Of a DNA stretch of 64,000 nucleotides, positions 1,685 through 39,230 are shown one piece after another. The notes under the pieces were generated by a model. It had not been told where the DNA came from. It saw nothing but the letters and a program-made list of their open reading frames with translations, and searched no databases. The DNA is taken from the NCBI GenBank assembly GCA_002778465.1, contig PFBV01000003.1, positions 303,766-367,765 of the forward strand, read 5' to 3'. The stretch's first letter is position 1, and each line of letters opens with the position of its first letter. The stretch comes from Candidatus Magasanikbacteria bacterium CG10_big_fil_rev_8_21_14_0_10_36_32. Its GTDB lineage: Bacteria > Patescibacteriota > Patescibacteriia > Magasanikbacterales > GWA2-37-8. A program made the translations under genes and the position numbers.

Positions 1685-1756
1685 GCCCCTGTAGTTCAAT
1701 GGATAGAACAAGACACTCCTAACGTCTAGATCCATGTTCGACTCATGGTGGGGGCA
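1685..1756 (+). tRNA. tRNA-Arg (anticodon CCT)
   Basis: Cloverleaf with acceptor GCCCCTG/TGGGGGC, D-arm GTTC-AATGGATA-GAAC, anticodon loop CTCCTAA and T-arm CCATG-TTCGACT-CATGG. There is one A-C mismatch in the anticodon stem and no encoded CCA. Confidence 0.8.
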
Positions 1757-1826
1757 CAGACGATTAACTGATAAACAGATAAGATATCAATCTAAAAAGT
1801 TTTTGGAGTAATTAGACCGCAAAGAT

Positions 1827-1967: not shown

Positions 1968-2040
1968 GGGCCTGTAGCTCATCTGGTAGAGCGCAGCATT
2001 CGCATTGCTGAGGTAAGGGGTTCGAGTCCCCTCAGGTCCA
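1968..2040 (+). tRNA. tRNA-Ala (anticodon CGC)
   Basis: Acceptor GGGCCTG/CAGGTCC with the G3:U70 alanine identity pair, D-arm GCTC-ATCTGGTA-GAGC, anticodon loop TTCGCAT, T-arm AGGGG-TTCGAGT-CCCCT and discriminator A. Confidence 0.85.
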
Positions 2041-2189
2041 CTATTTTTTCTTGTTATTGATAGGAAATTTATAAGGCAGGACAATATAAAATTTCGGCGA
2101 AAGTTTATATTTTTAGTTAATATTTCAGATTTGGTTGTAGTTATATTTTTTTAAAAAATATTTTGTCTAATTTTGTTAAAATATTGTCA

Positions 2190-2222: not shown

Positions 2223-2592
2223 TGAGTAGTTTTTAATAAATGGTGAGGTGTGGATGAATCTGTGCATAACTTGGGCTAAAGGGGGATAGATGTATAGAGC
2301 AGTGTATACAAATCTCACAATTCACATGGTGTTATTAACGGTGTTTTTAGTTTAGTAAAAGTGTTTTTTGTTGTTTTTTATTAAGAAAGTGGTAGAAATA
2401 AACATTGATTCTTATATTTGCGGGGGGGGTAGTGTGGAAAATCAAAGTGGATCAAAATCAGGATGTTTTGAAGGGTTGACAAAATTTCAAAAATATATTA
2501 TACATAATTTATACAATTTAAAATCCTGTTCAGTTTGAACAGGTCTCTGGCCCGGAGTTAGGGCAAAAGGAGCGGGTGATAACAAGCCCGAA

Positions 2593-3324
2593 GTGAATAT
2601 GATGGCGAATCCGTTGGAAGAGTTTAAAGATGTGCCATACGGCCGATGGGCCGCATTGGGACATAAACTTGGAGGTTTGAAGGCAATTGAGGTTATACTC
2701 AAAGACGATGAATTGGCGCGACGAATCAGAAAGCAGATTGCTGATGTTAATGTTACCACTATTATTCTGTCCGACGAGCGGACCCGCTTCTACAAGGAAG
2801 TCTTCGGTCTGACCGTGGATCTCTCCAAGGTGAGGCTCCCGCCCGAAACCGAAGGTTTCGGCTGGACGCTGACCATCGCCAAGGAGCTCGGTGACAAGCC
2901 ACTCGCCACAGTCATGGCCGCCTGTCGGAAGCTGTTCAAGGGCAATGTCTGGCAGTACGCCGACGACCTGGACAATTCCGTCCCGACCAACGACCGCGAC
3001 CCCCGACGCGACGGTTCCTACATCATCCGCGTCAGAGACAGAGTGGAAGCCGACGAGGAGAACAAGAATCTCTCGGCCGACACAGTCAAGTCGCGCAACA
3101 TGGTCACCCTGACACTGTTGGAGCGCATCGTCCTGGAGCTATTCTGCTTCTGGAAGACCGGCAAGCACCTGGACATCCAGAACACCACCCTTTGCTCCGG
3201 TTCGCGCAACTTCGATGGCGGTGTTCCGGGTTGTTGCTTGCGCGGCGGCGAGTTCGAGGTTTGCTGGCGCGGCTCGTCCAGTTGCCGCGGCGCTCTCCGC
3301 GCTCGCGAAGCAGTTTTGACCTAA
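2593..3324 (+). CDS. Conserved hypothetical protein, paralog 1 of 3 in this window. The first ATG is at 2599. The gene lies in a GC-rich island
   Basis: Shares FYKEVFGLTV...GDKPL...NDRDP...GSYIIRVRD..EADEENKNLSAD...TLTLLERIVLELFCFWKTGKHLD...TLCSGSR with ORFs 14464-15051 and 38361-39230. Upstream promoter-like TTGACA (2476-2481), 16-nt spacer, TATATT. GC rises to about 60% from about 2775 onward. Confidence 0.6.
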   Translation: MNMMANPLEEFKDVPYGRWAALGHKLGGLKAIEVILKDDELARRIRKQIADVNVTTIILSDERTRFYKEVFGLTVDLSKVRLPPETEGFGWTLTIAKELGDKPLATVMAACRKLFKGNVWQYADDLDNSVPTNDRDPRRDGSYIIRVRDRVEADEENKNLSADTVKSRNMVTLTLLERIVLELFCFWKTGKHLDIQNTTLCSGSRNFDGGVPGCCLRGGEFEVCWRGSSSCRGALRAREAVLT

Positions 3325-3337
3325 CCCTTTTTCCTTC

Positions 3338-3385
3338 GTTCTTTAATTCTTCGCCCCCTTGCGTCTTGCACAAGGGGGTTTTTTG
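3338..3385 (+). terminator. Rho-independent terminator
   Basis: GCCCCCTTG-cgtcttgc-ACAAGGGGG followed by TTTTTT. Confidence 0.7.
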
Positions 3386-3556
3386 TTGGCTAATTTTAGC
3401 CATCAAAATCATTTATTTTTTGAGGTTTTTAAAAGAGATGAGTTATCCCGAAGTTATACACAGTCTATTGTTCAGAGCATATCAAATTTATGCTATAATA
3501 TAGTATAGTAATTTTTAAAATAAAAATTTATTTAATTTTAATTTAATTTATTCTTT

Positions 3557-5863
3557 ATGTTCAGCAATATCATGGCGAATGTAAACAACCAAAAAATATT
3601 TAAGTTTTTGGATGTTTTTTCTTATGTCATCCTTTTGGTTAATGTGGTGGCAATTCCTCTATTCGTTGATAAAAATTTAATTAATTTTTATATCATACCA
3701 AAGCAGTATGTATTTATTGGTTTGGTTTTGATTAATGTGGTTTTGTTTGCGGTAAAAATTGTTTTATCAAAAAAGTTGACATATCGCCGTTCAGTAATGG
3801 ACTTGCCTATTTTAGGTCTTCTGCTAATTAGTTTGGCGGTTTCTATTTTTTCCGTTAATACTTTTGATTCATTTTTAGGACGAGGAGAATATTTTGTTTT
3901 AAATTTCTTCCTCCTTATATTCTTAGCCACTTTTTATTTTCTGTTGGTTAATATTCTAACAACTCAATCGCGCTGGCTTGGAATGGTTGATGCGTTATTG
4001 TATACCGGTGGAGCGACAGCACTTTTATTTTTGTTAAAAGCGATTTTTAAATTGGATATTATTTCTTATATTGCACCTTCAGCCATGAATACGATTGATA
4101 AGGTAAATATGGGCTTTGGTATTTGGTTAATAATGATTTTCTTGTTAGCTGCCGGAAAATTGATTAAGAAAAATATTACTGTTGGCAAGTCATTATCATA
4201 TTTCTTTGTCGCCTTATTAGCTTTTGTATCATTGGTAATGTTGAGCTTTAATATTTTCTGGTGGATTATATTGGCCGGTTTAGTATTGTTGTTGATGATT
4301 GGCATTAGTTTTGTTAAAGATTCAAGATTGGGTTGGGTTTCCGCTTTGTTTGCCATGACTATTTTAGTAGTGGTATTTATTGCTTTTGGAACACCGCGTT
4401 ATTTGCAGGCGGTGGTACCGGCGGAAGTTTCGTTAGGCTTTAAACCGTCTTGGTCAATTTCTGCGGACACGTTGTTTTCTGGGGCTAAGAATTTTATTTT
4501 AGGCAGTGGTTTAGGCACCTTTAATGTTGATTATTCTAAATTCAGATCAGTTGATTTCAACACAGATTCCATGGCTTGGTCATTAAGATTCAGTCAGCCG
4601 GCCAGTTCATTCTTTTCTTTGTTGGCTGAGGGTGGTATTGTCTTTACTTTGGCTTTGATATTTTTGATTATCTACAGTTTGGGACACGTTTTTAATATCT
4701 GGGTTAAAAAAGGCGCGCCGACTTTGGCACAAAAAGTTGTTGACGGTTTGGGTGATAGTGGAGATTTTAAAATTGATGTTTTCTTGATAACAGTTGCTTG
4801 GTTGGTTTTGAGCGGTGTTATGTGTGTGGTTTATTACGGTTTAGTGTTGTGGTGGTTGTGGTGGCTGTTGCTCGGTTTGATTATTACAGCCGTATCATTT
4901 ATTAATGCTGATGTAATTAAAACTAAAGTTTGGGAAGTTGATGATACCCCGCAGTATAGTTTAACTTTTTCGTTTGTTATGATTGTTGTGACAGCCGGTT
5001 TAGTAATGATTGGTGTTTGGGGAGGACGATTATATATGGCTGAGCGTGCTTACGCCAGCGCTTTAAAAAGTTCTGACTACGAAACAGTTGAAAGTAATTT
5101 AAAAACAGCTCTGTTTCATCGGCAAAATACCGATGTTTATCATGTTGCTTTGGCTCAAGTTTATTTGTTAAGAGCATCTGAAATGGTGCAAGGTGGTTCG
5201 CAAGATGTTCAAACAATTAGTAATTATTTGGCGCAAGCTGTGAATGAGGCTAGAACCGCCACTGATATTTCTCCAAGATCAGTAGCTATTTGGGAAAATT
5301 TAGCTGTGATGTATGAAAATGCCGCGGTCTTAGTTCCTGAGGCCGGAGAGTGGGCAATAAAAACATGGCAAAAAGCTAAAGAGTTGGAACCGACTAATCC
5401 GATATTGTCTTGGCGGTTAGGCAATAACTATGCTGTCGCCGGAAACTGGGAAGAGTCAGTAAAAAATTATCAAGAGGCTATTACATTAAAAAAAGATTAT
5501 CTTGATAGTTATATTAGTTTAGGTCGCGCCTTTGAACAACAAAATAAAGTTGAAGATGCGGTAAATATTTTTAAAGAAGGACTGTCTTACGGTGGAAATA
5601 GTAATTCCGCATTTCTCTTTGATTTTGGACGGTTGTTATACAACAGAAATAAAGGTTCAGATCGCTCTGATGCGGAACAGTTATGGTTGGCAGCTGTTAA
5701 ATTACAACCAAATTATTCCAACGCCCTATATAGTTTAGGTTTGTTGTATGAGAATAAAGACGATAAAGCCGCCGCTTTGCAATATTATTATAAAGTCAAG
5801 GATTTAAATCCGGACAATAAAGACATAACAACAAAAATTAAATCCTTGGTTGGTGGTGAATAA
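3557..5863 (+). CDS. Polytopic membrane protein, O-antigen ligase/polymerase-like domain with C-terminal TPR repeats
   Basis: 768 aa with at least 10 predicted TM helices in the first 470 aa. The C-terminal region has TPR-like helical repeats (YQEAITLKKDYLDSYISLGRAFEQQNK..., ALYSLGLLYENKDDKAAALQYYYKV). Confidence 0.55.
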   Translation: MFSNIMANVNNQKIFKFLDVFSYVILLVNVVAIPLFVDKNLINFYIIPKQYVFIGLVLINVVLFAVKIVLSKKLTYRRSVMDLPILGLLLISLAVSIFSVNTFDSFLGRGEYFVLNFFLLIFLATFYFLLVNILTTQSRWLGMVDALLYTGGATALLFLLKAIFKLDIISYIAPSAMNTIDKVNMGFGIWLIMIFLLAAGKLIKKNITVGKSLSYFFVALLAFVSLVMLSFNIFWWIILAGLVLLLMIGISFVKDSRLGWVSALFAMTILVVVFIAFGTPRYLQAVVPAEVSLGFKPSWSISADTLFSGAKNFILGSGLGTFNVDYSKFRSVDFNTDSMAWSLRFSQPASSFFSLLAEGGIVFTLALIFLIIYSLGHVFNIWVKKGAPTLAQKVVDGLGDSGDFKIDVFLITVAWLVLSGVMCVVYYGLVLWWLWWLLLGLIITAVSFINADVIKTKVWEVDDTPQYSLTFSFVMIVVTAGLVMIGVWGGRLYMAERAYASALKSSDYETVESNLKTALFHRQNTDVYHVALAQVYLLRASEMVQGGSQDVQTISNYLAQAVNEARTATDISPRSVAIWENLAVMYENAAVLVPEAGEWAIKTWQKAKELEPTNPILSWRLGNNYAVAGNWEESVKNYQEAITLKKDYLDSYISLGRAFEQQNKVEDAVNIFKEGLSYGGNSNSAFLFDFGRLLYNRNKGSDRSDAEQLWLAAVKLQPNYSNALYSLGLLYENKDDKAAALQYYYKVKDLNPDNKDITTKIKSLVGGE

Positions 5864-5936
5864 GGAGTAATAAATTTTTGAATAGCCACGGATATCCACT
5901 CTTTAAAAGCGGGCGGTCGTCAGATAAAAAGTTACT

Positions 5937-6563
5937 ATGAAAAAAACCGCCATTGCAGTCATACTTGTTATAAATTTATTTTTTCCTCTAAATTCTTTTG
6001 GGGCGATGTCTTCAACTAATTATTCAATTTACGCCGATGCTATAGATTCGGGCGGTAATTTAAGTACGGGAGGAATTTACAGTTTGGAAGATACGATTGG
6101 AGAATCGCCGGTTGGTTTTACTACTAGTACATGGTATGAAATTCGTGCCGGCTATCAAGCTATGGAGCGAGGTTATATTACTATGACTATTGATAATTCA
6201 ACTTTGAATTTGGGCAGTTTGAGTCAAATTGCTGTTAATTCAGCTTCTGCCAATGTGACAGTCAGCACAGATTCGGCTTCTGGTTATATTCTTTCTATTC
6301 AAAGCGTGAGTGGCACAGGATTGACCGCAGTAAGTGATGGTGAGGTGACGGTCGGGAGCGAAGAGTATGGTGTTTCTACTTCCGGCAGTGAAAGTGTGGT
6401 TAGTGGTGATGTGGGAGTGGAGGGCGGAACTTTTTTGGCAGAATCCATTTCAGCTATTGATAACAGCGTGACACAACTTACTTTTAAAGCTTCAATAAAT
6501 GCCGCTTCAGTTGTTGGAAGTTATAATCAAACAGTTACATTATCTGCTTCGGCAAATTGGTAA
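5937..6563 (+). CDS. Secreted Ser/Thr/Gly-rich hypothetical protein (signal peptide)
   Basis: N-terminal MKKTAIAVILVINLFFPLNSFGA signal. First gene of four tightly packed co-directional genes. Confidence 0.5.
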   Translation: MKKTAIAVILVINLFFPLNSFGAMSSTNYSIYADAIDSGGNLSTGGIYSLEDTIGESPVGFTTSTWYEIRAGYQAMERGYITMTIDNSTLNLGSLSQIAVNSASANVTVSTDSASGYILSIQSVSGTGLTAVSDGEVTVGSEEYGVSTSGSESVVSGDVGVEGGTFLAESISAIDNSVTQLTFKASINAASVVGSYNQTVTLSASANW

Positions 6564-7459
6564 ATTTTATGTTTAAAAAATTTTTATTTGTTTTGTTAAT
6601 TTGTTTTTTATGGGTTGGAAAAGCGGAAGCTTTTTCGATTAGTCCTTTAAAATATGTGGTTACCGTATCTCCGCGATCAAGCGAAGAGGTAGAAATAAAA
6701 ATTAAAAACGACCAATTAGTTAGCCAGAGATATGTTTTAAAGGTATTAGGAACGAAACAGAACAATCAAGGAGAATTAATTTTTTCAGAAGGTGTCAATC
6801 AAGCTGAAAATTGGGTTAAGCCAGAGAAAAATGTTGTACAAATTGATCCTGGCGAAGAAGTCACGGTTAATTTTTTTATAAAAACTGATTCTTTGGCTGA
6901 GTCTGGCTCATATTTTTTAGGTTTAGCAGCGGAGAATGTTGATTTAGGAGAACGGGAGGTTGGATTATCCGGAGAGTTAGTTTGTTTATTGTTATTACAA
7001 GTGTCTGGTCAGGTGCAGGAAAATTTATCGGTAACAAATTGGCAAACGGAAAATATAACTATAAATAAAATTTGGAACTTTGATCTATCAATTAAAAATA
7101 CATCTGCAGTTGAATTGCCAATTCAGTCAGAATTAATTATAAGAAATTGGCGTAATAAAATTATTTATAGAGAGTTGAATGATTTGGGATTATTGTTGCC
7201 ACAGGCAGACAGAATTTTTCAACAAAAAATTGACATGGTCGGACAAACATTTTTTTCAGGAAGTTATTCCGCGACCTTAAATATAATTTATGGACGAACC
7301 AATCAAATAAAAACTTTGGTTAAAAATTTTTGGAGAATATCTCCTGTTTGGATAATAATTTTAAGTGTAGTTGCAGTTGGAATAATAACTTTATTATATA
7401 GAATAAAAAAGAGAATGGTTGTTAAATTAAAAAAATATATTGAAAATTTTCAAGCATAA
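6557..7459 (+). CDS. Secreted hypothetical protein with C-terminal TM anchor
   Basis: Signal peptide LLICFLWVGKAEA; C-terminal WIIILSVVAVGIITLLYRIKKR anchor; overlaps the upstream gene by 7 nt. Confidence 0.5.
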   Translation: MVNFMFKKFLFVLLICFLWVGKAEAFSISPLKYVVTVSPRSSEEVEIKIKNDQLVSQRYVLKVLGTKQNNQGELIFSEGVNQAENWVKPEKNVVQIDPGEEVTVNFFIKTDSLAESGSYFLGLAAENVDLGEREVGLSGELVCLLLLQVSGQVQENLSVTNWQTENITINKIWNFDLSIKNTSAVELPIQSELIIRNWRNKIIYRELNDLGLLLPQADRIFQQKIDMVGQTFFSGSYSATLNIIYGRTNQIKTLVKNFWRISPVWIIILSVVAVGIITLLYRIKKRMVVKLKKYIENFQA

Positions 7460-7462
7460 AGT

Positions 7463-8398
7463 ATGAGAATAGGATTTAAAAAATTAATAATGGTTGTTTT
7501 GTTGATGTTGGGCTTGTTTAGTTTTTCAAATTTTGTTTATGGCAGTAGTGAAAGTAGTAATATAAATATACAAATGACCGTGCCAACGCCAGTGGTGGAA
7601 CCTGGCGATCCTGGCCCCGGAGGCAGTGATTCGGCACCGGTAATTTCAAATGTTGTAACAAGCACTTCGGCCAACAGCGCTGTTATTACTTGGATAGTAA
7701 CCGACGACAAAGGTTTAAGTAGTGTAAATTTTTATTATAGCGCGGACATGTCTTATGGTTTAACAACCACTACTATTGGAGCCTACCAAGTTAATTTAAG
7801 TAATTTGACGGAAGATACAATTTATTATTTTAAAATAGTCGCCACAGATATTGCCTCTAATGTAACTGAATACGCCGGGACACTTAAAACTTCCCTTGAT
7901 TCCGTTAAAAGTTTGAAAATATATGCGAAAGCAGAAAAACGAGTTCCCAAGATCGGAGGAAATCTGGCTTTGTTTACGACGGTCATTTTGTATGATCCAT
8001 CAGGTTTTTATTTGCCTTACAGTTTAAATGTTTCTTTGGATAAAACCGGTTCGTCTACTTTGTATAATGTCATAGTCCCAAACGGAACTAATTTAGAGGC
8101 AGTAATAAAAGGCCAGTCTCATTTAGCCAGGAAAATTATTGGCGTAAATATTCAAAATGGACAAGATATTTTTTTGGATTTTAGTGAAGCTGATTCGGTG
8201 GAATTATTGGCTGGAGATGTGCAAGGAACTGGATTAAAAGATAATTTTGTAGACATTCTCGATGTTTCAGCCGAGAATGTTAATTATAATAATATAGGAT
8301 TGAATGAAGATTTAAATCGTGATGGCGTAGTGGATATTTTGGATATGAGTATTGTATTAACCAATTTTAATTTAGCCGGTGTTCTGATTCCTTCATAA
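7463..8398 (+). CDS. Secreted protein with fibronectin-III-like region and C-terminal dockerin-like Ca-binding repeats
   Basis: Signal peptide; DILDVSAENVNYNNIGLNEDLNRDGVVDILDMSIVLTNFN matches the duplicated D-x-N-x-D-G-x-V-x-x-x-D dockerin type I pattern. Confidence 0.5.
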   Translation: MRIGFKKLIMVVLLMLGLFSFSNFVYGSSESSNINIQMTVPTPVVEPGDPGPGGSDSAPVISNVVTSTSANSAVITWIVTDDKGLSSVNFYYSADMSYGLTTTTIGAYQVNLSNLTEDTIYYFKIVATDIASNVTEYAGTLKTSLDSVKSLKIYAKAEKRVPKIGGNLALFTTVILYDPSGFYLPYSLNVSLDKTGSSTLYNVIVPNGTNLEAVIKGQSHLARKIIGVNIQNGQDIFLDFSEADSVELLAGDVQGTGLKDNFVDILDVSAENVNYNNIGLNEDLNRDGVVDILDMSIVLTNFNLAGVLIPS

Positions 8399-8402
8399 AA
8401 TT

Positions 8403-11288
8403 ATGACTAAAGCATTTCGTACAATTGTATTTTTTTTAGCGGCAGCGGCATTGTTGGCAACAGTCAGCATTGTTCAGGCGGCTACTTTTTCTTTAGAACC
8501 GGCTTCTGGAACTTTAATTAAAGGATGTCCGGCTTCTATTAATGTTAAATTAAATACTGGTAGCCAGTCGTCAAACGGCGCTCAAATTTATGTTGATTAT
8601 ACTGGTGTGAGCAGTGCCAACATGTCAGGCACGGGTTTATTTACGAGTTACGGTTTACCGCCGGGCTTGCCGGCCGGCACAGCTGGTTTGTATGGTTATG
8701 GAGGAGTGGTTTCTGGGGCATCTTTAAATTTTGGTCGCATTAATTTTACTGCTGGCGCACTGGGCACAGTTGGTTTAACTATTCGTTTTGGAGGCACAGA
8801 CAGTCTTGTTAGTAAAGTCGCAGCTTATCCTACCAGTGAAAATATACTTACCAGTGTTGTTTCTGGTTCATATACCATAGTCAATGGTTATTGTGAAACG
8901 GCTCCGCCGTATTTGGTTAATTTGATTCCGGCACCAGGAACGCCGAATCATCCGATTGATGAAAATATAAAGTTTGACATTAAAGATGATGGTTCCGGAG
9001 TGAATATATCTTCGTTGGTGGTTACGGTACAACAAAACGAAACAGATGTTCCTTTTAATATATCCACTGTTTTAAAAAGCACAACACAAGGTTGGTATTC
9101 AGTTGATATTGATCCGATTAATAACTTAATCCCAGAATTAAAAGTGGTTGTGACAGTAAATGTCTCAGATAATGCCGGCAATGCTTTATCCCGTTCCTAT
9201 TATTTTAATGATCTAACTTGCTCACAATTGGGTTGCGCGGTTGGGGGAGCGGTAGCTCAGTGTAATGATGGTATTGATAATGAGGGAGATGGAAGTGTTG
9301 ATTTTCCTAGCGATTCTGGTTGTGATAGTGTTGATGATAATAGTGAATATGTGTTGGGTGACATAGTTTGTACACAAGTTATTTCAACATCCACTTCGCC
9401 GGTTTGTCCATCACCGATTTGTGTTTCCGGCATATCGTCACAATGTAATGATGGTGTAGACAATGACAATGATAATTTGATTGACATGGCCGATCCAGGT
9501 TGTGATAGCGGAGATGATAACAATGAGTATGTTTTCGGTGAAGTTAAATGTCCAATTTGCCCATCTATAATTACCACTCCAACCATTACTCCTCCATTTA
9601 TTTCACCAACCACCACCCAACAGATTTTTGATGTGGGTGATTTAAAATTTTTCTTGGCTAGCCGAACAGTAGAAACAAAAGCCAGTAATTTAAGTGTGGT
9701 TGAAGATTTAGTGGGGATGAGTTTTGCGGTAGGAGCTAACATTAAAGATGTACAAGGTCCAATTACCGGAGTTTATTTAGTTTTGGGCGGAAAAACTTAT
9801 TCAATGTATTTTGATAATGGTTTAAAAATGTATGTCGCGGATGTGTTAGATTTAAACGAGGTGGAAATTTTAAACGGTATTGTTAGTGTTAAACATGGAA
9901 CCAATCAAGAAGATACCGCACAGTTTGTTTTATCTGTTTTAACATCAGGCATTGTTAGCAGTAAAGATCAAGATGGAAAAATCAATCCTTTGCCCGGTGC
10001 AACAGTTGTTTTAGAACAATTATCTTCTGCTAATAAATATATACAAATTAAAACAGCCATAACTAATAATCGCGGAGAATATGGATTTGTTTTGCCAAAT
10101 GGCAGTTATCGATTAAAAATTGATTCTGAAGGATATAAAAATCAAATTACCAGTGGTTTTACAATTACCAACCACATTATTAATCGGTTTTTCGTAATGT
10201 TCCCAAAGGTAGATTTGCTTTCGCCAGATGTTTCTTTGGGTGAGAAAATTACTTATATAGGAGATGTTGCGGGGGAGCAAACGAATAAAATTATTGAGAG
10301 TGTTAATGATCCAATAGTTGAACAAACAGCCAAAACAACCGTTGCCCCAATAGCTTTGGGCGCGGCCGTGGCAGCCACTGTTCCGGCTTTGTCATTTTTA
10401 AATTTAATTTCTTATTTAAGATTTTTATTTTTACAGCCAGTTTTCTTGTTTGGGCGCAAAAAAAGAAAGAAATGGGGAATTGTTTATAATGCGCTTACCA
10501 AAATGCCGATTGATTTGGCGTTGATTAGACTGTTAGATGTTAAGACAAACAAAGTAATTCAATCTCGTGTTACCGACACAGAAGGTCGTTATGCATTTTT
10601 TGTTGATCCCGGTTTGTACCGTCTTGAAGTGGTTAAACAAAGTTTGATGTTCCCGACTAAAATTTTACAGGATTTTAAAGAAGATACGACATTTTTGGAT
10701 ATTTATCATGGTGAGGCGATTCATGTGGATGAAAAATACACTGCCATTGCCGCTAACATCCCCATGGATCCGGTAGGTGTGGAAGAAAAAACACCACGTC
10801 GCATTATTTGGAGTCAGCGTTTGAGAGATTTACAAAGTTTTATTGCTTCATTGAGTATTGTTGCTGGTTTGGTTGCTTTAATAATTTCACCAACTTGGTG
10901 GACAATTGGATTATTTGTTTTCCAAATCGCAATTTATTATTTATTCAAACGTTTATCATCTGCTAAAAAACCAAAGAGTTGGGGTATTGTTTATGAAAAA
11001 ACGAATAATCAACCAGTCGACCGAGCGATGGCAAGATTATTTAGTAAGCAATTTAATAAATTAGTTGCTTCTGAATTGACTGATAATAACGGTCGTTATG
11101 CTTTCATGGTTGGACCAAATGATTATTATATAACTTTTGAAAAAACAGGTTACCAGAAAAAAACTACACCTGATATTAAAATTAAAGAACGGAATGAAAT
11201 TATTAAAGTCAATGTTGCTATGGATCGAGATGAATCATCAAAACCAATTTCAACCACTTCTAATCCTGTTCCGCCGGTTAAAAATTAA
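8403..11288 (+). CDS. Large (961 aa) surface protein. Modules: N-terminal cohesin-like beta domain, two Cys-rich CNDG(I/V)DN-type repeats, three CarboxypepD_reg-like domains, and internal TM segments
   Basis: Signal peptide FFLAAAALLATVSIVQA. Repeats QCNDGIDNEGDGSVDFPSDSGCDSVDDNSEY and QCNDGVDNDNDNLIDMADPGCDSGDDNNEY. Repeated KKWGIVYNALTKMPID...TDTEGRYAF and KSWGIVYEKTNNQPVD...TDNNGRYAF modules. Confidence 0.55.
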   Translation: MTKAFRTIVFFLAAAALLATVSIVQAATFSLEPASGTLIKGCPASINVKLNTGSQSSNGAQIYVDYTGVSSANMSGTGLFTSYGLPPGLPAGTAGLYGYGGVVSGASLNFGRINFTAGALGTVGLTIRFGGTDSLVSKVAAYPTSENILTSVVSGSYTIVNGYCETAPPYLVNLIPAPGTPNHPIDENIKFDIKDDGSGVNISSLVVTVQQNETDVPFNISTVLKSTTQGWYSVDIDPINNLIPELKVVVTVNVSDNAGNALSRSYYFNDLTCSQLGCAVGGAVAQCNDGIDNEGDGSVDFPSDSGCDSVDDNSEYVLGDIVCTQVISTSTSPVCPSPICVSGISSQCNDGVDNDNDNLIDMADPGCDSGDDNNEYVFGEVKCPICPSIITTPTITPPFISPTTTQQIFDVGDLKFFLASRTVETKASNLSVVEDLVGMSFAVGANIKDVQGPITGVYLVLGGKTYSMYFDNGLKMYVADVLDLNEVEILNGIVSVKHGTNQEDTAQFVLSVLTSGIVSSKDQDGKINPLPGATVVLEQLSSANKYIQIKTAITNNRGEYGFVLPNGSYRLKIDSEGYKNQITSGFTITNHIINRFFVMFPKVDLLSPDVSLGEKITYIGDVAGEQTNKIIESVNDPIVEQTAKTTVAPIALGAAVAATVPALSFLNLISYLRFLFLQPVFLFGRKKRKKWGIVYNALTKMPIDLALIRLLDVKTNKVIQSRVTDTEGRYAFFVDPGLYRLEVVKQSLMFPTKILQDFKEDTTFLDIYHGEAIHVDEKYTAIAANIPMDPVGVEEKTPRRIIWSQRLRDLQSFIASLSIVAGLVALIISPTWWTIGLFVFQIAIYYLFKRLSSAKKPKSWGIVYEKTNNQPVDRAMARLFSKQFNKLVASELTDNNGRYAFMVGPNDYYITFEKTGYQKKTTPDIKIKERNEIIKVNVAMDRDESSKPISTTSNPVPPVKN

Positions 11289-14463: not shown

Positions 14464-15051
14464 ATGTCCCATAATCAAAAATTAAATAAAAATTCTGTCT
14501 GGGTTAAGGAATGGATTAAATTTTATAAAGAAATTTTTGGCTTGGCTATTAATGTTTCAAACATTTTTATTCCGCCCAAAATCAAAGGTTTCAACCGACC
14601 AATGATTATTGCTCGTGAGATTGGTGATTCTCCGTTGGAAATGACAATGGTTACTTGTCAAAGATTATTTTCTTACATCAGTTATATTGGTGATAATCCA
14701 GATGAACTAATTTCAGTTACTAATCGTAACCCGCGATATAAAGGTTCCTATGCCATTCGTGTTCGTGACGGAATAGAAGCTGATGAGGAGAACAAAAATC
14801 TTTCGGCTGATGATATTAGATCTCAAAGTATGATTACAATGACTTTGTTGGAACGCATTATTTTAGAGTTGTTTTATTTTTGGAAGACAGGACAACATCT
14901 AGATAATCAACATTGGACTCTTTGTTCCGGCCCACGCAACAAGGCAGGGCAAATTCCATGCTGTTATTGGTACAAAAATATATTTTGGATATTTTGGTAT
15001 AATTCTGCCAATGCAATTGGCGATTTTCGCGCTCGTTCCGTGATTGTTTAA
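14464..15051 (+). CDS. Conserved hypothetical protein, paralog 2 of 3
   Basis: FYKEIFGLAINVS...GDSPL...NRNPRYKGSYAIRVRDGIEADEENKNLSADDI...TMTLLERIILELFYFWKTGQHLD...TLCSGPRN. Own TTGATA-17-TATAGT promoter upstream. Confidence 0.6.
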   Translation: MSHNQKLNKNSVWVKEWIKFYKEIFGLAINVSNIFIPPKIKGFNRPMIIAREIGDSPLEMTMVTCQRLFSYISYIGDNPDELISVTNRNPRYKGSYAIRVRDGIEADEENKNLSADDIRSQSMITMTLLERIILELFYFWKTGQHLDNQHWTLCSGPRNKAGQIPCCYWYKNIFWIFWYNSANAIGDFRARSVIV

Positions 15052-24377: not shown

Positions 24378-24430
24378 ATTCCCGGCCTTCGTTGGGTTTT
24401 GTTAGAAACAGATTCCAACGAAGGCCGGGA
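24378..24430. repeat. 17-bp perfect inverted repeat (GC-rich hairpin) at the left edge of GC-rich island 2
   Basis: TTCCCGGCCTTCGTTGG, 19-nt loop, CCAACGAAGGCCGGGAA. Confidence 0.6.
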
Positions 24431-24462
24431 ATTGTCCCGTCTTCCTTCTGTCCGCGGAGCGG

Positions 24463-25107
24463 TTGGAAGTACTCCCTTTTTGGGAGAAGGACTTTGTGGC
24501 CGGTTTGGTTCGCGCGGCCGTGGAGAACACGTTTTTCACCGCCATCTCGGACAAGGACGCTCCGGCTCGTTTCGCCGACGCAGTCGCCAAGTGGCGCAAG
24601 CTCGCCAGCGACCTCGGCTACACCGGCCCGGTGCTCTGGCAGGTGAAGGCAGGATTCACTCTGAAGAAGCACGCCCCGCTTGCCGGTCCTTGCTATAAGC
24701 GGTTCGGCTATCTGCAGAACTGCTGGTCGCTTCAGAACGACGAGCCGACGGTTGGCTCTATGGTATTCTATATCCCGCGCATCGTCGCGACGGAGAAGAA
24801 CACCGAAGAACAGAAGCAGGCGCTGGCTAAGCTTCGCAAGAAGTACGGCCTGCCCGAGAGCCATCTGTCCTCGTTCGGTTCGGCTGCCTTGGTTTCCGGT
24901 CTTATTCTGGCGCATTTCAAGCGCACGGGCGAGCGCGCTCCGTTCAACAGAAATTGGGTTCGCACCGATACCCTGCGCACGGATGACTACCGGCTCGGTC
25001 TCGGCGACTTTGATGAGGACGGGCTCTACTGCGACCACTGCCGCTGGGGTGACGGCTGCGGCGTTAGTCTCGGGGTCTTTCCTTTGGGGGTGGAGCTGGG
25101 TTTCTAG
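24463..25107 (+). CDS. GC-rich (about 60% GC, high GC3) foreign ORF of unknown function. It has no in-frame ATG start (TTG at 24463) and is possibly a gene remnant
   Basis: Coherent high-GC3 codon usage in this frame only. The minus-strand 227-aa ORF is Arg/Leu/Ala-rich antisense noise. The first in-frame ATG is near 24760. Confidence 0.4.
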   Translation: MEVLPFWEKDFVAGLVRAAVENTFFTAISDKDAPARFADAVAKWRKLASDLGYTGPVLWQVKAGFTLKKHAPLAGPCYKRFGYLQNCWSLQNDEPTVGSMVFYIPRIVATEKNTEEQKQALAKLRKKYGLPESHLSSFGSAALVSGLILAHFKRTGERAPFNRNWVRTDTLRTDDYRLGLGDFDEDGLYCDHCRWGDGCGVSLGVFPLGVELGF

Positions 25108-25278
25108 GTCGCTTAGTTCTTTTTGTTAGTTCTTGGGTCCTTGGCGTTTTGGCGCTTAGGATCCTTTTTTATTTCATTTTTGCGGAGTATAATAGCAGTC
25201 TGTTCATTAATTTTATCTATGGTAAATTTGCGCGAAAAAATCAGCGGGCTTAATTTGTCCGTTGTGGAAGAAGGAGTT

Positions 25279-38360: not shown

Positions 38361-39230
38361 ATGGCAGCGGAAGATTATTTGGATATTGTTGAATTTGCGA
38401 CTTTAAAAAAGTTGTTGTTAAAAATCGGTTGTGAACTTAGGGCATTTGGAGTAGTTAAGCGAGTTGGACCGGGAGCAAAAATAACTCAAGCGGAATTGAT
38501 GAAGTTGAGAAGTTTGGCTTCCGCCTGTGGAATTATGGCCAATGTTCAAAAGGCACTTTTAACACCGTGGCCGGGACAAAACAATGTTATTCCAAATATT
38601 GAAATTCCACCAGCGATTAATTCGGCTAATAAACCTAACAGTCAGACGAATTTACCGTTTGTTCCAATCGGTTTGATTAATATTTGGAGCAGATTTTATA
38701 AAGAAGTGTTTGGTTTGACAGTTAATATGTCAAAAGTTAAGTTTCCGGTTAGAGTGGAACATTTCGGCTGGACAGTGGTGGTGGCCGAAGAGCTTGGTGA
38801 TAAAACGCTTAATACGGTTATTGAAGTCTGTAAAAAAATGTTTTTGGTTCGGACCTATATTCGTAATGATAATTTGCAGTCAGTTGTAACTTTTAATGAT
38901 CGTGACCCGCAAGTTATTGGTTCTTACGCTGTTTATCCGCGCGCCAATCTCATGGCAGATATTGAAAATCTTAATCTTTCAGCCAATGAAATTAAATTAC
39001 GCAGTATTATAACCATGACTCTTTTGGAACGTTTGATTGTGGAAGTTTTTATTTTTTGGAGCCGCAATAAACATTTGGATGAAAAGACATTTACTTTGTG
39101 TTGCGGTTCACGCGATCTGTGGGATGATGTCCCTGTTTGCGGTTATTTGTCTGGTGCGGTATTTCAAATTACAAGCCGTGTTGCAGGTAATTATGATACT
39201 TATTATCGCGCTCGGACTGTAATTTTTTAA
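38361..39230 (+). CDS. Conserved hypothetical protein, paralog 3 of 3 (longer N-terminal extension)
   Basis: RFYKEVFGLTVNMSKV...GDKTLNTVIEVCKKMF...NDRDPQVIGSYAVYPRA...NLNLSANEI...TMTLLERLIVEVFIFWSRNKHLDE...TLCCGSRD. Confidence 0.6.
   Translation: MAAEDYLDIVEFATLKKLLLKIGCELRAFGVVKRVGPGAKITQAELMKLRSLASACGIMANVQKALLTPWPGQNNVIPNIEIPPAINSANKPNSQTNLPFVPIGLINIWSRFYKEVFGLTVNMSKVKFPVRVEHFGWTVVVAEELGDKTLNTVIEVCKKMFLVRTYIRNDNLQSVVTFNDRDPQVIGSYAVYPRANLMADIENLNLSANEIKLRSIITMTLLERLIVEVFIFWSRNKHLDEKTFTLCCGSRDLWDDVPVCGYLSGAVFQITSRVAGNYDTYYRARTVIF

Follow-up and report, generated by a model that had tools for sequence, protein, structure and literature searches.

The GC-rich gene COU29_02230

We analysed a 64,000-nt stretch of the genome of Candidatus Magasanikbacteria bacterium CG10_big_fil_rev_8_21_14_0_10_36_32 (contig PFBV01000003.1, positions 303,766 to 367,765; this whole 64-kb stretch is called the window below), in which a short gene, here named P1, stands out by its base composition. 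It very probably belongs to a Patescibacteria-specific family of variable proteins of diversity-generating retroelements (DGRs), and is not accompanied locally by a template repeat (TR), Avd or reverse transcriptase (RT). The window has a GC content of 0.355, and its 400-nt intervals average 0.354 (standard deviation 0.051); the two highest peaks on that scale are the one containing P1 (GC island 1, 0.618) and one at ~24541 (0.613), and the third reaches 0.458. In 200-nt intervals, GC goes from ~0.30 at 2001-2500 to 0.54-0.63 within 2701-3400, and is down to 0.21 by 3401-3600. Seven overlapping open reading frames (ORFs) are listed in the GC-rich DNA of the island; the sole one with protein-level conservation is the ORF at 2593-3324. 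The features of island 1 are:

2593-3324, plus strand: P1 (COU29_02230), homologue of the family-1 DGR variable proteins; 243 aa from a GTG start, 241 aa from the ATG at 2599 (the NCBI start)
2593-2775, plus strand: N-terminal helical module of P1; GC 0.443, GC content at third codon positions (GC3) 0.443; absent from the closest relatives
2776-3198, plus strand: conserved family core of P1; GC3 0.84 (last 123 nt excluded)
3199-3315, plus strand: variable repeat (VR)-like 3′ end of P1; 8% A, with NNC/NNT codons where the relatives' TRs have AAC/AAT
3353-3379, plus strand: hairpin and T-run (GCCCCCTTG...CAAGGGGG; dG -17.9), 29 nt past the stop; an intrinsic terminator and/or the inverted repeat found after the VR of DGR targets
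2525-2543, strand unassigned: small 8-bp hairpin in the P1 leader (CCTGTTCA..TGAACAGG), terminator-like on the minus strand in the scan

The initial annotation of this DNA had described an abrupt, in-frame switch to GC-rich codons at ~2775, and GC3 indeed changes there from 0.44 to 0.84. Counted backward from the stop codon in 20-codon bins, nine bins have a GC3 of 0.70-0.90, followed by bins of 0.45, 0.35, and 0.55; the core together with the VR-like end (2776-3321) has a GC content of 0.615 and a GC3 of 0.808, while GC3 is 0.268 ± 0.029 (range 0.21-0.33) across the 23 window ORFs that encode 300 aa or more. The other descriptive points of that annotation hold as well: the GC-rich section encodes a conserved family core and belongs to one of three paralogues in the window, it is followed by a GC-rich terminator (the hairpin and T-run at 3353-3379), and two tRNA genes (tRNA-Arg and tRNA-Ala) lie upstream. 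The two other paralogues are AT-rich:

14464-15051, plus strand: P2, AT-rich family-1 paralogue, 195 aa; VR equivalent decayed
38361-39230, plus strand: P3, AT-rich family-1 paralogue, 289 aa; VR equivalent decayed

A tblastn search of the window with the P1 protein aligns 14509-15048 (P2) at 49% identity and 38688-39227 (P3) at 47% identity, with GC3 values of 0.29 and 0.31, respectively. Because these paralogues conserve the protein with AT-rich codons, P1 is a genuine gene rather than a side effect of GC-rich DNA. Such DNA does yield long ORFs in several frames (the seven overlapping ones here), and one could imagine a structured, GC-rich RNA with chance ORFs, or an assembly chimera; but the chance of either is close to nil, given 47-49% protein identity to paralogues of wholly different codon usage, 403 homologues with 19 invariant residues, a confident AF2 model (pLDDT 88), and the absence of an Rfam match. 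As for a chimera, which the initial annotation had wanted excluded, contigs from four different samples (ENA and JGI assemblies) match the window at 100% identity over ~5-13 kb across both GC junctions, so island 1 is not an assembly artifact. Over the whole window, only nine tRNAs reach the Rfam gathering scores; the four window proteins considered here (P1, P2, P3, and the protein of the second GC island described below) have zero matches in Pfam and PHROGs.

Family 1 and its DGR cassettes in related genomes

All P1 homologues that carry a source name are hypothetical proteins of the Patescibacteria group or of an unclassified “bacterium.” None of the homologues has a Pfam match. Their N-terminal modules vary even among close relatives, and in the C-terminal stretch fixed residues alternate with positions occupied by C, Y, D, S, G, R, H, F, L, N, A, or V, the residue set of NNC codons. 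Each locus was searched for a repeat of the 3′ end of its gene, and we called a TR when at least 75% of the mismatches fell at adenines of the downstream copy. A TR was found for 37 of the 86 family-1 genes: the last ~120 nt of the gene are repeated ~250-300 nt past the stop codon, at 76-90% identity. In some pairs every mismatch lies at a TR adenine (20/20 in locus L011, 28/28 in L080, 24/24 in L024, and 22/22 in L054), and a codon-wise comparison of 12 TR/VR pairs shows AAC/AAT in the TR where the gene has mixed NNC/NNT codons. The order of the cassette in these relatives is target gene, hairpin, ~120-nt TR, divergently oriented bAvd gene, and RT gene. Pfam identifies RVT_1 and bAvd in L011 and L042, and RVT_1 in L001 and L080; the RTs of family-1 cassettes are RVT_1 proteins with YxDD and [ILVM]GxxxSQ signatures, and bAvd was seen in relatives L011, L042, L085, L150, and L153-L155. 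The two closest relatives of the P1 protein (69 and 65% identity) have TRs with adenine-specific differences only (16/16 in L149 and 20/20 in L150), and L150 also has bAvd and RVT_1 on its short contig. The adenine specificity of the TRs, together with bAvd and RVT_1 in relatives, identifies family 1 as DGR variable proteins.

In a DGR, RNA of the TR is converted by RT-Avd into a cDNA, with errors at template adenines, and this cDNA replaces the VR. Retrohoming in the relatives' cassettes would re-randomise ~15-25 codons (from AAC/AAT to NNC/NNT) in the C-terminal β-hairpin region. DGRs of the candidate phyla radiation (CPR) were reportedly treated by Paul and colleagues in 2017. The canonical DGR features (a variable protein with its VR, a TR, Avd, and RT) have been summarised (Wu et al., 2018; PMC5758913), and the Patescibacteria-restricted DGR lineage is the “DGR clade 2” of Roux et al. 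(2021; PMC8144416).

The 3′ end of P1 itself looks like a VR. Its codons (GGT, TGC, CGC, GGC, AGT, and similar ones) face the AAC/AAT codons of the family TRs, and its adenine fraction at third codon positions (A3) is 0.05. In an ungapped comparison with the TR of L149, the P1 VR differs at 25 of 33 A positions vs. 22 of 86 non-A positions; against heterologous TRs, the footprint has Fisher p-values of 8e-7 (L149) and 2e-5. This adenine footprint indicates that P1 was diversified in the past. A GC-rich inverted repeat is also present just 3′ of the P1 VR at the offset typical of the family, although its terminator-like form makes it non-specific; across the family, the post-stop hairpin lies ~20-35 nt past the stop codon, with a mean dG of -21.5 in TR-bearing loci vs. 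-11.1 ± 3.4 in random windows.

Neither the window nor the 7.4 kb that precede it (L081) yielded a TR for P1. The window was searched by low-stringency blastn and with the P1 VR (~117 nt, GGTTCGCGC...GAAGCAGTT) written as an IUPAC pattern that tolerates adenines (R for G, M for C, and W for T), with at most three mismatches. Nor was there an RT or Avd in the same 64 and 7.4 kb (L081) by tblastn with 33 family RT ORFs and the RT and Avd of L085; the one ORF of the window with a YxDD motif is a PilX-like pilin, and no COU29_ entry is among the best 120 of at least 8000 homologues of a relative's RT. We infer that P1 at present either is served remotely, by a DGR located in another part of the chromosome, or has been frozen as an orphan. 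Loss of machinery does occur in this group: the syntenic loci L085 and L086/L087 differ in the presence of TR, bAvd, and RT beside the same target gene. (The genes shared in synteny by L085 and L086/L087 are those for an AI-2E transporter, a polysaccharide synthase, SpoIID, the variable protein, RuvB, and NrdD; the target is equally GC-rich in both.)

P1 is thus very probably a DGR variable-protein gene without machinery in cis, and joins a known class. With the targets of Patescibacteria DGR clade 2 it has in common the family, the architecture of the VR, and the post-VR hairpin, but it differs from the clade 2 cassettes in lacking TR, Avd, and RT over the stretch searched. It resembles remote or orphan DGR targets in bearing a VR without an adjacent RT; remote VRs of this kind are missed by cassette-based searches (Roux et al., 2021; PMC8144416). 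P1 is also like Mtd of Bordetella phage BPP-1, TvpA of Treponema, and TaqVP of Thermus in having a C-terminal VR, scaffold residues that alternate with AAC-derived codons, and a downstream GC-rich inverted repeat, which are general DGR features (Wu et al., 2018; PMC5758913). However, these proteins have no detectable sequence similarity or significant structural similarity to the P1 protein: a sequence profile search of the PDB with P1 returned nothing, and a Foldseek search with its AF2 model matched TaqVP (5vf4) with an E-value of 1.9 over 42 columns and C-type lectins with E-values above 4 (up to 6), with template modelling scores below 0.4. The P1 protein also differs in that it is small and single-domain, has a variable helical N-terminus, and is cellular rather than phage-borne.

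GC content of DGR target genes across Patescibacteria

We compared each family-1 gene with its own flanks in 80 loci fetched from different species. The gene is more GC-rich than its flanks in 78 of the 80, with mean values of 0.533 and 0.419 (a difference of 0.114) and a mean gene GC3 of 0.634; when the VR is removed, the excess is still seen in 68 of 75 loci. In a profile anchored on the gene, the excess opens at the start of the ORF and closes at the stop codon, and the 400-nt interval of highest GC content in the locus falls inside the family-1 gene in 35 of 48 loci (~7% would be expected). The GC content of the gene varies with that of the host (r = 0.48, slope 0.56). GC-richness is a lasting property of the DGR targets of this phylum and not a mark of foreign origin. 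One metagenome-assembled genome (bin-329; loci L041, L061, L063, and L019) has up to three tandem family-1 copies per contig, all TR-less, with a GC content near or slightly under that of their flanks, an expansion of non-diversified copies. As to the AT-rich paralogues in the window, the VR equivalents of P2 and P3 do not align to any TR, and the two genes look like long-decayed former DGR targets; they have the base composition of the genome, their ORFs are intact, and their terminator hairpins are strong.

The second GC peak of the window contains a gene of another family:

24463-25107, plus strand: gene of the second GC island, from a second DGR variable-protein family; GC 0.60, GC3 0.76; VR-like part at ~24980-25093
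25135-25164, plus strand: hairpin and T-run after the second-island gene; dG -18.3

This second family is likewise found only in Patescibacteria, and a profile-profile comparison detected no relation between it and family 1. In locus L085, a gene of the second family is followed by an AAC-rich TR, bAvd, and RVT_1, and this TR serves two VRs, with 17 of 18 and 15 of 16 mismatches at adenines. Over the final 290 nt, of which 30 lie beyond the stop codon, both L085 targets share 89% identity, which shows conversion between co-resident targets. Sixteen loci of the second family have a TR. The VR of the second-island gene differs from the L085 TR at 16 of 26 A positions vs. 18 of 85 non-A positions (p = 2e-4), and both GC islands of the window are DGR target genes. 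The gene body of the second family is more GC-rich than its flank in all 42 loci with enough flank (mean difference 0.138; GC3 of 0.70 vs. a flank GC content of 0.43). The copy in the window may be 5′-truncated; it is without the ~30 N-terminal residues of its homologues (MNRKASF...), and a hairpin with a 17-bp stem (24378-24432) lies at that site.

The RT and Avd genes of DGR cassettes do not share this property, being at or below the GC content of their flanks. In family-1 cassettes (n = 30), the target body exceeds the RT gene by 0.14 in GC and 0.28 in GC3, and the RT gene is under flank GC in 28 of the 30. Three further cassettes picked by their RT alone, with targets that belong to neither family, have target GC3 values of 0.83, 0.67, and 0.86 vs. 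RT values of 0.31, 0.39, and 0.46. The contrast between target and RT/Avd thus recurs in 68 of 75 family-1 loci, in 42 of 42 second-family loci, and in three of three further cassettes; in GC3, targets typically surpass their genome by 0.2-0.5 and the RT encoded beside them by ~0.28. In L153 (4491-5175), the database places the gene on the minus strand (4491-5123), and the frame on the plus strand has a GC3 of 0.83 and a VR; gene calling may thus assign GC-rich DGR targets to the incorrect strand.

Taken across families, we tentatively propose that the DGR targets of Patescibacteria, and only they, are kept as GC islands sharply delimited by their ORFs, in at least five unrelated families and with or without a TR in cis; that this state decays after loss of the VR; and that it points to an unrecognised force.

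The step at 2775 and the source of the GC excess

The initial annotation had suggested that P1 was acquired recently from a high-GC donor (e.g., an actinobacterial host), and had pointed to nearby tRNA genes as classic integration targets; such a transfer from beyond Patescibacteria could have involved all of P1 or just the 3′ two-thirds. The tRNA genes are:

1685-1757, plus strand: tRNA-Arg(CCT), found by ARAGORN and Rfam; context only
1968-2041, plus strand: tRNA-Ala(CGC), found by ARAGORN and Rfam, ~550 nt upstream of the P1 ORF; context only

A GC3 of 0.84 against 0.27 for the genome, the sharp boundary, and the two tRNA genes fit such a transfer, and P1 does share with tRNA-linked genomic islands an atypical composition beside tRNA genes. 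However, the family is GC-rich in 78 of 80 related loci, the very observation that the annotation had named as telling against its proposal, and a recent import of island 1 from a high-GC donor therefore fails; we regard it as very improbable. None of the named homologues belongs to a phylum other than Patescibacteria, high-GC or not, and the near-identical donor that had been anticipated did not appear, since the best nucleotide identity to any relative is 77%. There are zero matches in phage, plasmid, and viral-contig collections, and homologous cassettes have AT-rich RT and Avd genes. Unlike a tRNA-linked island, P1 stands alone as one gene, its called neighbours include no integrase, and the island is not bordered by a tRNA-end repeat. 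Its homologues are GC-rich regardless of tRNA proximity: a tRNA or tmRNA gene lies within ~1.7 kb upstream in only ~8 of 55 related loci. Two narrower candidates were rejected. A passenger of a phage or plasmid was sought by comparing the GC-rich segment with phage and plasmid sequences at nucleotide level and by scanning viral contigs for a protein pattern, with no result; the co-variation of gene and host GC content argues against a donor of fixed composition.

The proposed replacement of the 3′ two-thirds fares better in part. The N-terminal part of P1 has a GC3 0.40 below that of the core, the most extreme difference among 78 family genes (the family minimum is otherwise -0.24), whereas the N-terminal modules of the family average a GC3 just 0.045 below the core. 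Nucleotide homology of P1 to L149 (77%) and L150 (74%) starts at 2766-2771, at the GC3 step, and the N-terminal module of these closest relatives is different from that of P1 and itself GC-rich. The step at ~2775 is best read as a recombination junction that joins the GC-rich family core to a different N-terminal module, and it is quite conceivable, and compatible with P1 being a gene of the DGR variable-protein family, that the core came from another DGR target gene of Patescibacteria. Replacement as such thus remains plausible, with a donor of that kind and not a high-GC organism. The variation of N-terminal modules between close relatives, the conversion between the L085 targets, and the syntenic loci with and without RT and Avd all agree with this. 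On the other side, the best donor identity of 77% means that the event is not recent or that the donor is unsampled; unequal rates of compositional decay in the two parts of the gene would be an alternative; and recombination of the core accounts for the step at 2775, not for the family-wide GC-richness. For the latter, a spill-over of adenine mutagenesis can be envisaged, in which long cDNAs made from transcripts that include the gene strip adenines from all of it. Adenines are very scarce in the VR (A3 0.046), and complete cassettes have the TR immediately downstream of the gene; but in the gene body A3 and the corresponding thymine fraction drop equally (from 0.252 to 0.168 and from 0.299 to 0.217), C/(C+T) and G/(G+A) increase alike, and A-depletion is confined to the VR. 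Moreover, GC3 is flat along the ORF with no gradient from the VR, the profile is the same with or without a TR in cis, and a strong hairpin and T-run separates gene and TR; the adenine fraction of the VR does not correlate with the GC excess of the body (rho = -0.03). Spill-over is thus unlikely, and we consider selection on the transcript or its translation (codons optimised for strong expression, or an RNA structure under selection) just as unlikely. The ORF-bounded excess and the strongest enrichment in C-ending codons are what such selection would produce, but rpsT, rpoB, adk, pgk, and polA of the same genomes are not GC3-rich (rpsT 0.31 vs. P1 0.72), no other gene in the window, the two islands apart, exceeds 0.46 GC in a 400-nt interval, the N-terminal part of the same P1 ORF has a GC3 of only 0.44, and the P1 core folds no better than dinucleotide shuffles (z = -0.41).

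Several observations weigh against our reading of P1 as a DGR target and of the GC excess as a property of such targets. The case that P1 itself was targeted comes from homology and the footprint, and the searched stretch contains no TR, RT, or Avd. The fold of P1 is not assignable; Foldseek gave a best E-value of 0.33 against the PDB, and nothing significant in BFVD. Two weaker points are that the P1 protein is identical in eight contigs from at least four samples (an exact-sequence look-up in consensus assemblies), and that its 90% protein cluster has a single member, with no VR variants among the proteins of the collection; both speak weakly against current activity. Copies that have a cis TR are barely more GC-rich than TR-less copies (+0.097 vs. 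+0.064, p = 0.05), and the effect in targets far exceeds the modest effects reported for GC-biased conversion in bacteria.

As to the cause, we can offer only a tentative suggestion, with low confidence: either a fixation bias favours GC where a gene is prone to recombination, or selection acts directly to keep target DNA GC-rich. The target is regarded as recombination-prone because of the conversion between co-resident targets, the presence or absence of machinery at syntenic sites, and the chimeric structure of P1. The force could be GC-biased repair or conversion at a habitual recombination substrate, or retrohoming might require GC-rich target DNA.

Some features around P1 deserve mention in their own right. 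In L042, the same tRNA-Arg(CCT)/tRNA-Ala(CGC) pair lies 3.7 kb upstream of a complete family-1 DGR, and this DGR, which has two targets, sits between that pair and a tRNA-Ala(GGC) (L042 positions 464-691, 4191-7554, and 9190-9265); L042 and the window have no synteny beyond the tRNAs and the target gene. A 22-nt element with the palindrome GTTTCAYGTGAAAC occurs at 1826-1847, 1858-1879, and 1940-1961 (two of the copies exact), between tRNA-Arg and tRNA-Ala and just before the latter, and could be an operator or a processing signal. The start region of P1 (2596-2610, AATATGATGGCGAAT) matches 14 of 15 nt at 3566-3580 (AATATCATGGCGAAT) in the downstream gene for a 768-aa tetratricopeptide repeat (TPR) membrane protein; this match is of borderline significance and might mark a duplication from placing the gene there.

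The literature searched interprets atypical GC content of DGRs only in terms of horizontal transfer (Wu et al., 2018; PMC5758913). We found no report there of a target-specific GC signature, and priority is uncertain, as the key CPR paper (Paul et al., 2017) was outside that search. In the window, the two GC islands and the two AT-rich paralogues make up a picture of DGR target genes in different states, in a stretch without DGR machinery. If true, the GC signature would provide a detector, based on composition only, for the remote or orphan DGR targets that cassette-based searches miss; and if the contrast between targets and machinery survives a corrected survey, it would constrain how DGR targets evolve or get recognised.

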